Shown here piece after piece: positions 38,808-45,709 of a stretch of DNA of 64,000 nucleotides. The position numbers and the translations under genes were made by a program. Position 1 is the stretch's first letter. Every line of letters starts with the position of its first letter. The stretch lies in assembly GCF_050320075.1 (NCBI RefSeq), contig NZ_CP190018.1; one strand, 5' to 3'. The DNA is from Escherichia coli. Lineage in GTDB: Bacteria; Pseudomonadota; Gammaproteobacteria; Enterobacterales; Enterobacteriaceae. A model generated the notes under the pieces. It was given only the letters and a program-made list of their open reading frames with translations. It searched no databases and was not told the origin of the DNA.

Positions 38808-40190
38808 TCAACCTGCCACACTCCCCCACACCAGTTGCCCTTTATGGAACGTCGCCGTTCTCGGCGAGATACGCGCCACCGCCTCGGCGGAACAGGAGGC
38901 GTCCACCAGCACAAAGCTGGCATCATCCTGCGCTTTGGGCCACACGCGCTCGCCTTTTTCGTTGAGCGGCAATACATCGCCAGTGGCTAAAAACAGCGAG
39001 CGGGAGAGGTTCTGTTCGTTAGGACGAATATAGAGCTGCGCGTACAGATTGGCTTTTTCCAGCATGTCGCCCAGGCCGTAAGGCGACCAGTGGTCGATAA
39101 CGCTGTCGGTGCCGGTCATCACTTTTACGCCTTTGTCGTGCAACTGTTTGAGCGGCATATGCAGCGTGCCAATCGGCACCGTCGAGGCGATAGAAATTTG
39201 CTGCGCCGCCATCCGGTGCGCCAGTTCATCTACCTGTTGCTCATTGAGCGTTGCCAGCGCAAAGGCGTGGCTGATGGTCAGCTTGCCCTTCAGTTGCGGC
39301 GTTTTCTCCACCGTTTCAACCATATAATTGATGGCTGCCACGCCTGCCGGAGTGGTTTCGTGCAGGTGAATATCAACGCCTTTGTCGTAGTCCAGCGCAA
39401 TCTGGAACATGGTGTCGAGGGATTTTTCCATCGCGCCATCAACACTGGTCGGGTCCAGCCCGCCGACGTAATGCGCCCCCGCCTGCATCGCTTCGCGCAT
39501 TAAGGGTTCTGATTTCGACAGCAGCAAACCGTGCTGCGGGAAGGCGACAATTTCACACTCGAAGCCCGCCTGACGTCGCGCCAGAACCGCCTGCAAATTT
39601 TGCAGATTTTTCAGGCCGGAAACCGGTTCGATATTGCAGTGGCTGCGGGAAATGGTAGTGCCTTTCGACTGCAATAAATCAATCAGTTTTTCCGCCCTTT
39701 CCTGAGTGTACGGTTGCAACTCCGGCAGCATTTTCTGCTCGAGTTTGATCATGTCCTGGATGGTGGTGCATGCCGGACGATTGAGCGAGCGCCACGGCCC
39801 GCCGTAGAAGGTTTTGTCGAGATGAATATGCATGTCGCGGGTGGTGGGCAGCATCAGCTTACCGCCAGCGTCATAGTGCGGCAGCGTGGCGTCCGGATGC
39901 TGATTGTTCTCGCGCAGTGCAACAATTTTGCCGTTCTGAATTTCCACAGTCTGGCGCGCCGTGCGGGTCTGCACCGCCACGCCATTTTCGTAGTCAAAAC
40001 CGGTTTCCAGCAACACGTTGTCGAGATAGTAGTGCGGGTCAGTGATTTTCATGGTGTTATTCGCGTCGCAGTGGGTTGTGCCAGAGACTGCCGCATGGGC
40101 GAGCGGCACAGAGGTACCAAACAGCGCGGCGGCGGTGACCATCTTACCGCTCTGGCTCAGAAACTCACGGCGGCTATTGCTTTCTTTCAT
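38808..40190 (-). CDS. yahJ: amidohydrolase/deaminase-family protein with twin-arginine signal
   Basis: 460-aa ORF; N-terminus MKESNSRREFLSQSGKMVTAAALFGTSVPLAHA has an RR motif and hydrophobic core; metal-dependent hydrolase His motifs. Confidence 0.9.
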   Translation of the reverse strand: MKESNSRREFLSQSGKMVTAAALFGTSVPLAHAAVSGTTHCDANNTMKITDPHYYLDNVLLETGFDYENGVAVQTRTARQTVEIQNGKIVALRENNQHPDATLPHYDAGGKLMLPTTRDMHIHLDKTFYGGPWRSLNRPACTTIQDMIKLEQKMLPELQPYTQERAEKLIDLLQSKGTTISRSHCNIEPVSGLKNLQNLQAVLARRQAGFECEIVAFPQHGLLLSKSEPLMREAMQAGAHYVGGLDPTSVDGAMEKSLDTMFQIALDYDKGVDIHLHETTPAGVAAINYMVETVEKTPQLKGKLTISHAFALATLNEQQVDELAHRMAAQQISIASTVPIGTLHMPLKQLHDKGVKVMTGTDSVIDHWSPYGLGDMLEKANLYAQLYIRPNEQNLSRSLFLATGDVLPLNEKGERVWPKAQDDASFVLVDASCSAEAVARISPRTATFHKGQLVWGSVAG

Positions 40191-40199
40191 CTTACGTCC

Positions 40200-41150
40200 T
40201 TACGTTTTAATAATATGGGTGCCCGTTTCACCGCGCAGCGCCGCAAGCAGGCATTCCGGCGTGGTGATAATCACTTCTTTGCCGCCCTGTTCCAGGAACG
40301 TCAGGCTGGCGATGATTTTTGGCAACATGCTGCCAGGCGGAAAATGCCCTTCCTGCATATAGCGGGTCATGGTGGCAATATCCACCCGATCGAGCGCCTG
40401 CTGCTGCGGTTTGCCAAAGTGAATACACACTTTTTCGACGCCAGTGGTGATCACCAGAATGTCGGCGTGAATTTCACGGGCCAATAGCGCGGTAGAGAGA
40501 TCTTTGTCGATAACCGCGTCCACGCTTTGGTAATCCCCCGCTTCACTGCACACCACCGGAATTCCGCCACCGCCCGCGCCAATCACCACAAAGCCTTGTT
40601 GGATCAGCGCCTTAATGGCAGGTGCTTCTACAATACGTTGCGGTTCCGGCGAGGCGACCACGCGGCGATAGCCCCGTCCGGCATCTTCAACAAAACGCCA
40701 GTCAGGGTTTGCCTTTTGTAATTCGTCACGCTGGCTGTCACTAAAGAATGCGCCGATGGGCTTGGTGGGATGAGCAAAACCCGGATCGTTTTTATCCACT
40801 TCCACCTGAGTCACCACGGTGACGGCTTTTTTCTCGCCATGACGCGCCAGTCGGTTGTTCAGCGCCTGTTGGATCAAGTAGCCAATGCCGCCTTGCGTAT
40901 CCGCCACACAGTTCGCCAGCGGCGTTAAGGGCAGCCCTTCGCGCTCGTGGGCAATCTCCGCGCGGCGTAAATCCAAACCGACCTGCGGTCCGTTGCCGTG
41001 GGTCAGCACAATGTCGTAATCGGAAGCCAGCATTTCCAGCACCGTATCGGCGACGGCTTTCACCGCCTCCGCCTGATGCTCAATCGACTGGCTGGCGTTA
41101 TCTTTGATAATGCTGTTGCCACCAATGGCAACGACCACAAGTTCTTTCAT
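40200..41150 (-). CDS. yahI: carbamate kinase-like protein
   Basis: ORF 40200..41267; start placed at MKELVVVAIGGNSI (316 aa); amino-acid-kinase-family N-terminus. Confidence 0.9.
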   Translation of the reverse strand: MKELVVVAIGGNSIIKDNASQSIEHQAEAVKAVADTVLEMLASDYDIVLTHGNGPQVGLDLRRAEIAHEREGLPLTPLANCVADTQGGIGYLIQQALNNRLARHGEKKAVTVVTQVEVDKNDPGFAHPTKPIGAFFSDSQRDELQKANPDWRFVEDAGRGYRRVVASPEPQRIVEAPAIKALIQQGFVVIGAGGGGIPVVCSEAGDYQSVDAVIDKDLSTALLAREIHADILVITTGVEKVCIHFGKPQQQALDRVDIATMTRYMQEGHFPPGSMLPKIIASLTFLEQGGKEVIITTPECLLAALRGETGTHIIKT

Positions 41151-41245
41151 ATTGTTATGTCCGCTACAGAGGGTGATGGGGTTATGAGAGTGAGGTTGCC
41201 CCTCTCCCCAGAAGGAAGAAGGGATCGTAAGGTGCAGTTGGAGGG

Positions 41246-44211: not shown

Positions 44212-45064
44212 AATTCCCTCCGTAGGTTTGGCTCAGCGCACAACCATCGGCCATGCCATACAGCATGTCGCAGCCGGAACTGGAGCCAATATGTTTAATT
44301 TTTTCTATTGCCTGAGTTGCGTTCCCAGGGATGTCATAAATAATGTTATGAATAAAACGATGAATATCTTCCCGGCAGCGTTGTTGTAATGCGGCTTCCA
44401 GCGTTATGGCACTTAATAACGTGGTATTATTTCTGCCGCGTTGCAGACCGAGATAAAATTCCTCTTTGTATTTTTCCGCCGGATGCCCAGGAATAAATAA
44501 AATAAGCGCCAGACCTGTTAAATAATCGTCGGCTGATGGCGTAAGGCCAATCCCTAAGCCCATCATACTGGCGACCGCTGAGGCGATATTTTGTTTATCG
44601 TTTACGGCCTGAATAACTGCCCGTCGTTTAATATGTAATTCTTTATTTAACGCCTGATAAAACGGATTATCGCCGCAATAATTAAACAGGGTTTCATTTT
44701 CCCCCAGGTGCTGATGAATAATGTCATGCCACTGTTGCCAGGCGATAAGGTGAAAATTCACAGCGGTCATTTGCAAGGTTGGGGACAGCCAACGCCGACA
44801 ACGACTCATCTCTATATGAAGATGTTGACCAACCGTAATGCCTTGATCGTCAAACTGAACCTTATCACCATGCCGGAACAGACCATCAAAGTGAGTGAGT
44901 GCCAACCGACAACTGTTTGGCGCATTGTCGTACTCTTCACAAAGCAGCGTCAGCAACTGCTGGCGGGCCGGAAGTGCGATATTTACCGCTCTGGCAAAGA
45001 CCTGTTCAACCTGTCCTTGCCCCCGCTGCGCCAGAAAATCAGCATCCGCAGTTAGCGCCCACAC
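44201..45064 (-). CDS. yahE: DUF2877-family protein
   Basis: 287-aa ORF overlapping the yahF start by 11 bp. Confidence 0.85.
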   Translation of the reverse strand: MWALTADADFLAQRGQGQVEQVFARAVNIALPARQQLLTLLCEEYDNAPNSCRLALTHFDGLFRHGDKVQFDDQGITVGQHLHIEMSRCRRWLSPTLQMTAVNFHLIAWQQWHDIIHQHLGENETLFNYCGDNPFYQALNKELHIKRRAVIQAVNDKQNIASAVASMMGLGIGLTPSADDYLTGLALILFIPGHPAEKYKEEFYLGLQRGRNNTTLLSAITLEAALQQRCREDIHRFIHNIIYDIPGNATQAIEKIKHIGSSSGCDMLYGMADGCALSQTYGGNYVS

Positions 45065-45103
45065 ACACCGTCTTTCTGGTGTGTTGATAGCAAGCCTCCC
45101 GGT

Positions 45104-45709
45104 TTATGCACCTGCGGCCATCAGTAACTGCGCAATCTCTTCAAAGCCTCGTTCCCGCGCCAGTTCCAGCGGCGTTTTGCCATATTTATCCGTCATGTGC
45201 GGGCTGGCACCGTGTTCCAGCAATAACTGGACAATCGCCTGCTGTTTAATCCCGCCATCATTAAGCACAATTGCTTCCAGTAGCGGCGTCCAGCCAACAT
45301 GGTTGGTCTGGTTAACGTTAATCTCCGTATGCGCCAAAAGCTCTTTTACAATACTTAAATGGCCTTTTTCACAGGCAGGCGTCAGGCCGACACCGCCAAA
45401 ACGGGTGACGCAATTAAGATCGGGTTTAGCCGGTAAAATAATCCGTAACAGGGTTAAATCGCCGGTCAGGCAGCTAATTAAAAAAGGATTTGAACATATT
45501 TGATCTTGCTTATTAATATCTGCTCCGGCATCAATTAATGCCTGAACGCAAGCATATTGCTGATATAAACTTGCCAGCGTAATTGCCGTTTTCCCCTGAC
45601 GATCGCAGGTATTAATATCGACACCCAGCGCAAGGCAGGTTTTTACTTTATCGATATCACCCTGTTGCGCAGCCAATAAATAGTCGGCAGGTAGATTTTT
45701 TATAGTCAT
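45104..45709 (-). CDS. yahD: ankyrin-repeat protein
   Basis: 201-aa ORF with repeated G-TPL--A---G motifs typical of ankyrin repeats. Confidence 0.88.
   Translation of the reverse strand: MTIKNLPADYLLAAQQGDIDKVKTCLALGVDINTCDRQGKTAITLASLYQQYACVQALIDAGADINKQDQICSNPFLISCLTGDLTLLRIILPAKPDLNCVTRFGGVGLTPACEKGHLSIVKELLAHTEINVNQTNHVGWTPLLEAIVLNDGGIKQQAIVQLLLEHGASPHMTDKYGKTPLELARERGFEEIAQLLMAAGA

Follow-up and report, generated by a model that had tools for sequence, protein, structure and literature searches.

We analysed a 64,000-nucleotide stretch of an Escherichia coli chromosome (the window; contig NZ_CP190018.1), to which several strains are 100% identical. The subject is the yah cluster, consisting of six genes, yahDEFGIJ, and the divergent pair yahC and yahB. 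The coordinates, with RefSeq annotation taken from an identical strain, are as follows.

38808-40190, minus strand: yahJ, 460 amino acids, from the open reading frame (ORF) list and the RefSeq annotation
40200-41150, minus strand: yahI, 316 amino acids, with its ATG at 41150 read directly
41151-41245, minus strand: spacer between yahG and yahI, 95 bp
41246-42664, minus strand: yahG, 472 amino acids
42664-44211, minus strand: yahF, 515 amino acids
44201-45064, minus strand: yahE, 287 amino acids
45104-45709, minus strand: yahD, 201 amino acids, the first gene of the operon
45967-46464, plus strand: yahC, a small inner-membrane protein of the DUF1097 family
46556-47488, plus strand: yahB, a LysR-type regulator

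The ORF list and the RefSeq annotation agree on this gene set. A mechanical ORF call that started yahI at 41267 was rejected as an over-extension, and the ATG at 41150 was taken instead. The original prediction, made from the sequence alone, had described six co-directional, tightly packed genes flanked by divergent yahC and yahB. The coordinates confirm this: all six lie on the minus strand, yahF and yahG overlap by 1 bp and yahE and yahF by 11 bp, and the remaining gaps are 9 bp (I/J), 39 bp (D/E) and 95 bp (G/I). Its domain calls for all eight proteins were reproduced with Pfam labels on orthologues and with NCBIfam profiles. YahG carries PF06545, YahF carries HMA_AllF_N, CoA_binding and Ligase_CoA, and YahE carries PF11392; YahD is an ankyrin-repeat protein, YahC a DUF1097 protein and YahB a LysR protein. 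The region is present at a coverage of at least 80% in 4979 of 5426 complete E. coli genomes, with 95-100% identity. We consider it probable that the eight genes form a self-contained catabolic unit in which a ureide, oxalurate or a relative of it, would be split by phosphate and ATP recovered.

The evidence that carries this reading is the relationship to the allantoin (all) genes. When the proteins were compared with those of the K-12 all region, YahF was 38% identical to AllF (E 2e-101), YahG 45% identical to AllG (E 2e-119), YahE 25% identical to AllH (E 2e-10) and YahI 38% identical to AllK (E 2e-57). The suggested kinship with the fdrA-ylbE-ylbF-arcC group is therefore real, and homology of YahE, YahF and YahG to the allantoin-cluster proteins was detected with E-values from 2e-10 to 2e-119. 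The suggested link of this domain set to carbamoyl-group metabolism now has experimental support in the paralogues. Work published in 2024 showed that AllFGH is an oxamic transcarbamylase, which interconverts oxalurate plus phosphate and carbamoyl phosphate plus oxamate (PMC11326118), and AllK is a catabolic carbamate kinase (PMC9843812).

The yah genes are mentioned in neither of these papers (PMC11326118, PMC9843812). In a 2024 y-ome survey yahC, yahE, yahG, yahI and yahJ, five of the eight adjacent genes, were still uncharacterised (PMC11551758), and no functional assignment for the operon was found in the literature searched. The description of the cluster as an orphan still holds. A gemcitabine-resistance paper that names yahF concerns an incidental junction with nupC and was set aside as uninformative. 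The homology of YahE and YahG is itself not new, as RefSeq names them "oxamate carbamoyltransferase subunit AllH family" and "YlbE family", respectively. What is new here is the orthology with Bacilli clusters, the conserved partnership of YahD, the paralogy of YahB and AllS, the conservation of the YahJ export signal, the alternation of a permease with YahC, and the loss of YahE.

Compared with all, the boundary between the F and G genes is shifted. Residues 12-53 of YahG show homology with the last ~45 residues of AllF (E 5e-8), so that a C-terminal segment of AllF is the N-terminus of YahG. Such a shift is what would be predicted if F and G work as one physical unit. We found no allantoin-pathway genes in the 64-kb neighbourhood and none in 80 related loci; yah is a separate locus with its own AllS-like regulator and is not in the allantoin regulon. 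The earlier idea of a paralogous, ureide-cleaving and ATP-yielding module is supported by the All homology, with the refinement that yah is not simply a copy of all.

The individual profiles fit this scheme. YahI scored 643 bits with PRK12352 (cutoff 266) and fell just below the arcC model TIGR00746 (345 against 358 bits); the AllK equivalog model gave 228 bits against a cutoff of 416. Its GGN, HGNGPQVG and IDKDL stretches align with AllK. By these matches YahI belongs to the carbamate kinases, and we propose that it acts last. YahG, of the DUF1116/AllG family, is proposed to be a subunit of a ureide phosphorylase. YahF, of the FdrA/AllF family, scored 490 bits with NF004760 (cutoff 433) and matched the FdrA structure 3DMY (E 5e-82). 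FdrA was first identified as a multicopy suppressor of an ftsH mutant.

Taken at its database name, YahF would be an acyl-CoA synthetase, and the cluster would activate an organic acid with CoA. The CoA_binding and Ligase_CoA domains and the similarity to succinyl-CoA synthetase alpha chains speak for this reading. However, the best-scoring stretch shared with the E. coli alpha chains (1cqi, 1jkj, 2nu6 and related entries) ends at residue 234, before the catalytic phosphohistidine, His246. No beta (ATP-grasp) subunit is encoded in the cluster, and the obligate neighbour is a carbamate kinase. Moreover, AllF, which has the same domains, is a transcarbamylase subunit and not a ligase (PMC11326118). 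We give this alternative almost no credence and regard the synthetase label as a domain-name artefact.

The proposed ureide phosphorylase is closer to Firmicute modules than to AllFGH. YahG is ~70% identical (653 bits) to PDB 3CLQ, an uncharacterised DUF1116 protein, whereas AllG is ~45% identical to it (379 bits), and a search with the 3CLQ sequence returned hundreds of 475-amino-acid homologues in Bacilli. The Bacilli gene contexts come from single look-ups, seven Firmicute-type loci in total. Compared with these versions, YahF is 62-65% identical (38% to AllF), YahG 75% (45% to AllG) and YahI 54-58% to the cluster kinases (38% to AllK). From these values, yah is orthologous to the Bacilli module and belongs to a distinct, older lineage; it is not a recent copy of all.

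The locus of 3CLQ (L008) reads PucR regulator, then AllH, AllF, AllG and a membrane protein. In Peribacillus, Paenibacillus, Psychrobacillus, Trichococcus and Jeotgalibaca, a PucR-type regulator is followed by genes for F, G and an ankyrin-TPR protein. Four of these five genera have AllH in the locus (Jeotgalibaca does not), and three have a carbamate kinase. The operon of Jeotgalibaca is minimal, with permease, ankyrin-TPR protein, F and G only. The PucR-type regulator is constant in these clusters and the deaminases vary. They are either of the YahJ family (36-43% identity) or a 150-amino-acid protein of the cytidine-deaminase fold. The YahJ family is represented by two proteins each in Peribacillus, which also has a TRZ/ATZ-type deaminase, and in Trichococcus; in Paenibacillus and Psychrobacillus the 150-amino-acid protein stands beside an allantoin-permease-like NCS1 transporter. 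Nucleobase- or allantoin-type permeases and an amidase of the hydantoinase/carbamoylase family are also found in the Bacilli clusters. Two unrelated deaminase folds in one slot argue for deamination of an amino- or imino-compound as a genuine upstream step. The end of the Trichococcus cluster (L092, 12971-14236) encodes a 422-amino-acid protein with three tandem imine-deaminase domains of the RidA/RutC type, a hint that the Trichococcus version of the pathway passes through a reactive enamine or imine at some point.

A genome collection was scanned with YahG, which matched at least 80 species loci. The 80 loci listed are all from Enterobacterales and Aeromonas, and 72 of them span yahB to yahI. 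The unit yahB | yahD-(E)-F-G-(permease)-I-J is kept in all 72, and the flanking genes differ. Orthologues of YahE occur across Enterobacterales, in loci that read LysR | ankyrin-AllH-AllF-AllG-carbamate kinase-amidohydrolase. With the order recurring in 72 of 72 species loci and the core in Bacilli, the arrangement is not due to chance.

Two membrane proteins alternate within this unit. In 56 of the 72 loci, a 516-amino-acid multi-pass membrane protein (permease) is encoded between yahG and yahI and yahC is absent. In the other 16, yahC is present and the permease absent; no locus has both or neither. The yahC loci are those of Escherichia, Pseudocitrobacter, Kluyvera, Citrobacter amalonaticus, the Klebsiella oxytoca group, Raoultella and an isolate named Enterobacter sp. 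10-1. The permease is 82-94% identical among genera and recurs in Bacilli, where the cluster versions share 56% (Jeotgalibaca) and 67.5% (Psychrobacillus) identity with it. In the window the 95-bp spacer occupies the permease position. In K-12 the same position holds repetitive extragenic palindromic (REP) elements ("yahH"; PMC11551758), and the spacer reaches 235-319 bp in E. whittamii and E. albertii. A third membrane protein, of 393 amino acids, takes the place of the permease in the 3CLQ-type and Trichococcus loci. We found no sequence similarity among YahC, the permease and this protein. Strict alternation of this kind is read here as the replacement of one transporter by another, and YahC is proposed to be the substitute.

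Copies of the cluster also occur on plasmids. About 70 mostly conjugative E. coli and K. pneumoniae plasmids carry a foreign, 82%-identical yahD-E-F-G-permease-I copy. The one examined (L091, CP057697.1, 75964-99647) is an IncF plasmid with yahJ missing, IS100 nearby and the yahB homologue split in two. The plasmid matches give no evidence on function. Those with the best coverage are F-prime plasmids or entries of chromosome size deposited as plasmids, and ~70 are the truncated foreign copy.

The proposed accessory proteins YahE and YahD behave differently. YahE, of the DUF2877/AllH family, is the fastest-evolving member, with 35-96% identity among the census loci against 86-99% for YahG. It is absent from 22 of the 72 loci and from the Jeotgalibaca operon; in the YahE-less loci of Enterobacter, Leclercia, Lelliottia, Silvania and Huaxiibacter, only 109-147 bp lie between yahD and yahF. 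Its paralogue AllH is needed for full AllFGH activity (PMC11326118). In contrast, yahD is found in every proteobacterial locus that covers its position. In the Bacilli proteins of 381-397 amino acids without a Pfam label, the N-terminal half consists of ankyrin repeats, is homologous to YahD (33-35% identity, E ~1e-35) and is fused to TPR repeats. Judged by this distribution, the ankyrin protein, which allFGHK lacks, is a conserved component of the yah lineage, and we propose that YahD is a scaffold or a fourth subunit. The loci that lack the ankyrin protein (allFGHK, L008 and L095) do carry AllH. Every locus of this limited sample has at least one of the two, which suggests that their accessory roles overlap.

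Two side observations concern these genes. Peribacillus has a second, uncalled YahD-like ankyrin ORF (L009, 3702-4139), which is 43% identical to residues 54-201 of YahD and lies beside an NCS2 permease, upstream of the PucR regulator. In a UTI89 expression-library screen, a yahD-yahE-yahF fragment (44201-45709) was enriched 17-fold among filamentation-causing clones (PMC6206680).

YahJ belongs to the Amidohydro_3/1 families and scored 713 bits with PRK06846 (cutoff 447). It stayed below the cytosine-deaminase (CodA) models (66-101 bits against cutoffs of 403-483). Its nearest solved structures are 6nbo (E 4e-43) and the AtzC entries (E 2e-30), annotated as N-isopropylammelide isopropylaminohydrolase. 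The metal-site motifs HxHLDK, DIHLHE, SHA and TDS..D align with those of 6nbo and 2qt3, and YahJ is 30-37% identical to AtzC-type proteins. Enzymes of this type use hydrolysis to release an exocyclic amine from a ring carbon that has nitrogens on both sides.

The N-terminus of YahJ, MKESNSRREFLSQSGKMVTAAALFGTSVPLAHA, is a twin-arginine translocation (Tat) signal. In SRREFLSQSGKMVTAAALFGTSVPLAHA the S/T-R-R-x-F-L motif, the hydrophobic stretch and the AxA cleavage site are all present. Of 80 proteobacterial homologues scanned, 79 retain the SRREFL motif; the one exception is probably due to the script and not to a real loss. Two Peribacillus homologues are without the twin-arginine motif. YahJ has been listed as a Tat substrate, and a yahJ deletion mutant of an extraintestinal pathogenic strain was mildly but significantly outcompeted in mice (competitive index 0.70; PMC7549933). 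This defect hints that the substrate is present in the host. By its motifs and profiles, YahJ is a metal-dependent hydrolase of the AtzC/cytosine-deaminase subgroup with predicted export through Tat. The conserved signal places YahJ before import.

YahB is 74-99% identical and adjacent to the operon in all 72 loci. Its best NCBIfam match is the AllS model, at 268 bits against a cutoff of 372, followed by PunR; AllS is 39% identical to YahB orthologues. On this basis YahB is a paralogue of AllS and not AllS itself. The region that it might control is as follows.

45710-45966: divergent control region, between yahD and yahC
45749-45760: block GAGAATAGCAAC, upstream of yahD
45780-45791: conserved block CCGCTTAAATTT, upstream of yahD
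45813-45833: perfect dyad TTGTTGAA-N5-TTCAACAA, conserved upstream of yahD

In an alignment of the sequence upstream of yahD from 15 genera or species, the dyad and the two blocks are conserved from Escherichia to Aeromonas and Proteus. We regard the dyad as a candidate YahB site. No consensus sigma-70 promoter was found in the control region, which fits an activator-dependent promoter.

The same lack of a consensus promoter could be taken as a sign of decay, with the operon a remnant that has no current function in E. coli. This would agree with the loss of the conserved permease from E. coli, the yahG-yahI gap of varying length with its REP elements in K-12, and the fact that no phenotype has been reported. 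However, all six ORFs as well as yahC and yahB are intact, the region is retained in 4979 of 5426 complete genomes at 95-100% identity, and permease loss is matched by yahC gain in 16 of 16 loci. The mild mouse defect of the yahJ deletion mutant (competitive index 0.70; PMC7549933) also speaks against decay. A remnant is thus very unlikely.

Taking the active catabolic unit as our reading, we propose the following route. YahJ, exported by Tat, would strip an amino or imino group from its substrate in the periplasm, giving ammonia and a ureide. Its substrate may be a small nitrogen-rich amino-heterocycle or an acyl- or carbamoyl-guanidine. The ureide would then be imported, by the 516-amino-acid permease in most genera and by YahC in the Escherichia/Klebsiella/Kluyvera group. 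In the cytoplasm YahF and YahG might form a core, supported by YahE and YahD in an accessory or scaffold role, and convert the ureide and phosphate to carbamoyl phosphate and an amide. YahI could then transfer the phosphate of carbamoyl phosphate to ADP, forming ATP, ammonia and carbon dioxide. YahB, as an AllS-like LysR activator, is expected to switch the operon on from the dyad upstream of yahD. The homologies, the gene order, the export signal and the alternation of transporters are observed in the sequences. Each catalytic step and the order of the steps are inferred from them, as are the roles of YahC, YahD and YahB. The composition of the Jeotgalibaca operon agrees with the proposed order, since a permease, an ankyrin-TPR protein, F and G without further genes indicate that F and G act on the imported molecule itself and that the deaminase works before them.

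For the ureide that is cleaved, the most likely candidates are oxalurate and close relatives of it, such as allophanate or biuret. Two distant relatives of the 516-amino-acid permease adjoin hydrolases of the isochorismatase family that match biuret hydrolase best (311 and 271 bits, cutoff 370). One of these contigs also carries a second permease paralogue and a third AllH-AllF-AllG-carbamate kinase lineage, ~50% identical to YahF and YahG. These neighbours agree with a 2025 report in which biuH/trtA is co-located with allFGHK in nitrifier genomes (PMC12625717). Together with the AtzC-like nature of YahJ, these associations point to condensed ureas (oxalurate, allophanate, biuret and their amidino or amino precursors) and not to allantoin itself. 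Within this class, oxalurate itself is possible though doubtful, and we lean towards another acyl- or carbamoyl-urea. Creatinine/N-methylhydantoin, cytosine, 5-azacytosine, ammelide/cyanuric acid, guanylurea, malonurate and iminoallantoin were also considered as substrates, and the support for them was insufficient.

Several points weigh against the proposed route. The usual products of AtzC-type enzymes are stable rings and not acyclic ureides, and the enterobacterial yah operon encodes no ring-opening enzyme. YahE is dispensable in 22 of the 72 loci, so the subunit model may differ from that of AllFGH. The conserved permease has been lost from E. coli, and the substitution by YahC is drawn from co-occurrence. 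The permease itself has no Pfam, NCBIfam or PDB-sequence match. Its comparison with NCS2 gave a non-significant hhalign probability of 3.8%, and its AlphaFold2 model was unusable (mean predicted local distance difference test score 41.7) with an alignment that is too shallow at 82-94% identity. The permease family comprises 2339 representative clusters, and its links to the nucleobase/sulfate-permease superfamily are weak only: PF00860 (Xan_ur_permease) was matched by one of 45 family members (5e-7), and one GenBank record names the protein "xanthine permease". Finally, an allFGH deletion strain makes no oxamate from allantoin anaerobically (PMC11326118). Chromosomal yah therefore does not replace AllFGH in that strain, where it is either silent or does not use oxalurate. 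With only allFG or allGH supplied, residual activities of 7% and 16% were reported (PMC11326118); as speculation, these could reflect help from YahE or YahF.

This result also bears on the possibility that YahEFG is a second oxamic transcarbamylase, which would act on external oxalurate or on oxalurate made by YahJ, independently of the allantoin regulon. YahEFG and the proven AllFGH are in one family, and the Bacilli clusters hold allantoate-amidohydrolase-like and allantoin-permease-like genes. The 3CLQ protein, ~70% identical to YahG, is presumably from Enterococcus faecalis. In the 1980s, E. faecalis reportedly was found to ferment oxalurate with an oxamic transcarbamylase and a dedicated carbamate kinase. 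If this assignment of 3CLQ is right, two oxalurate enzymes would bracket Yah and favour oxalurate for it. On the other hand, the deletion strain gives zero oxamate (PMC11326118), and no ureidoglycolate dehydrogenase or ureidoglycine aminotransferase was seen in the Yah-type loci examined. The consistent partners are deaminases, with a biuret-hydrolase-like enzyme in the related lineage, which points away from the allantoin route. A second oxamic transcarbamylase is rather unlikely on balance.

A broader version of the condensed-urea idea can be offered tentatively, as a conjecture that we rate as somewhat improbable. The Yah-type module would then be a widespread, unrecognised and energy-conserving route for condensed-urea or triazine-type nitrogen compounds, for example an "allophanate or biuret phosphorylase". 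In enteric bacteria a periplasmic AtzC-like deaminase would feed it, and an ankyrin-repeat protein would be a true enzyme subunit able to replace AllH. Its parts may be the permease, the ankyrin protein, F and G, with or without AllH, and the carbamate kinase. Such a phosphorylase may replace the purely hydrolytic allophanate hydrolase route and yield carbamoyl phosphate and ATP.

Downstream of yahJ, an IS150 element (~35416-37940) splits the substrate-binding gene of a sugar/AI-2-type ABC transporter. Both halves of that gene are pseudogene fragments in the annotation of the identical strain. A small ASCH-domain gene (38100-38510, minus strand) lies between yahJ and the disrupted transporter. 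It had no NCBIfam match and is outside the conserved yah unit of other genera.

If the proposed catabolic unit is real, it would be a third carbamate-kinase-linked fermentation of a nitrogen-rich compound in E. coli and would also be found in many gut and soil bacteria. It would give a new substrate to the recently discovered three-gene transcarbamylase family and make an ankyrin-repeat protein part of a bacterial metabolic enzyme. As the paralogue is well studied, yah is directly testable with existing assays.

The nearest known system is AllFGH with AllK, from the anaerobic allantoin pathway of E. coli. Both systems combine the same three protein families with a carbamate kinase in a single operon, and the gene of an AllS-type LysR regulator is close by; by analogy ureide phosphorolysis to carbamoyl phosphate and then ATP would be expected for yah. 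However, the yah proteins are only 25-45% identical to their All counterparts and form a separate lineage nearer to the Firmicute modules, with a shifted F/G boundary. Additions in yah are an ankyrin subunit, an AtzC-like hydrolase with a Tat signal and a transporter of its own. The yah operon is not surrounded by allantoin genes, it does not substitute for AllFGH in vivo, and the AllH-type subunit is dispensable in many of its lineages.

In s-triazine and condensed-urea catabolism (AtzC, BiuH, TrtA, AtzF), AtzC is the nearest structurally characterised relative of YahJ. Relatives of the 516-amino-acid permease and a sister F/G/H-kinase module adjoin BiuH-like hydrolases, and in published metagenomes biuH/trtA is a neighbour of allFGHK. 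Unlike those pathways, the yah locus encodes no cyanuric acid hydrolase, BiuH or allophanate hydrolase.

The arginine and agmatine deiminase pathways would share their logic with yah, in that a deiminase, a transcarbamylase, a carbamate kinase and a transporter together yield ammonia and one ATP. Their first two enzymes are not homologous to yah proteins, and the yah deaminase is predicted to be periplasmic. Their transferase works on an alkylamine, whereas the proposed yah transferase would work on an amide-type nitrogen, as in oxalurate. The third carbamate-kinase cluster of E. coli, ygeW-ygeX-ygeY-hyuA-yqeA, combines an orphan transcarbamylase, a carbamate kinase and amidohydrolases in anaerobic N-heterocycle breakdown. 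Its YgeW has the classical single-subunit transcarbamylase fold, which is unrelated to F, G and H.

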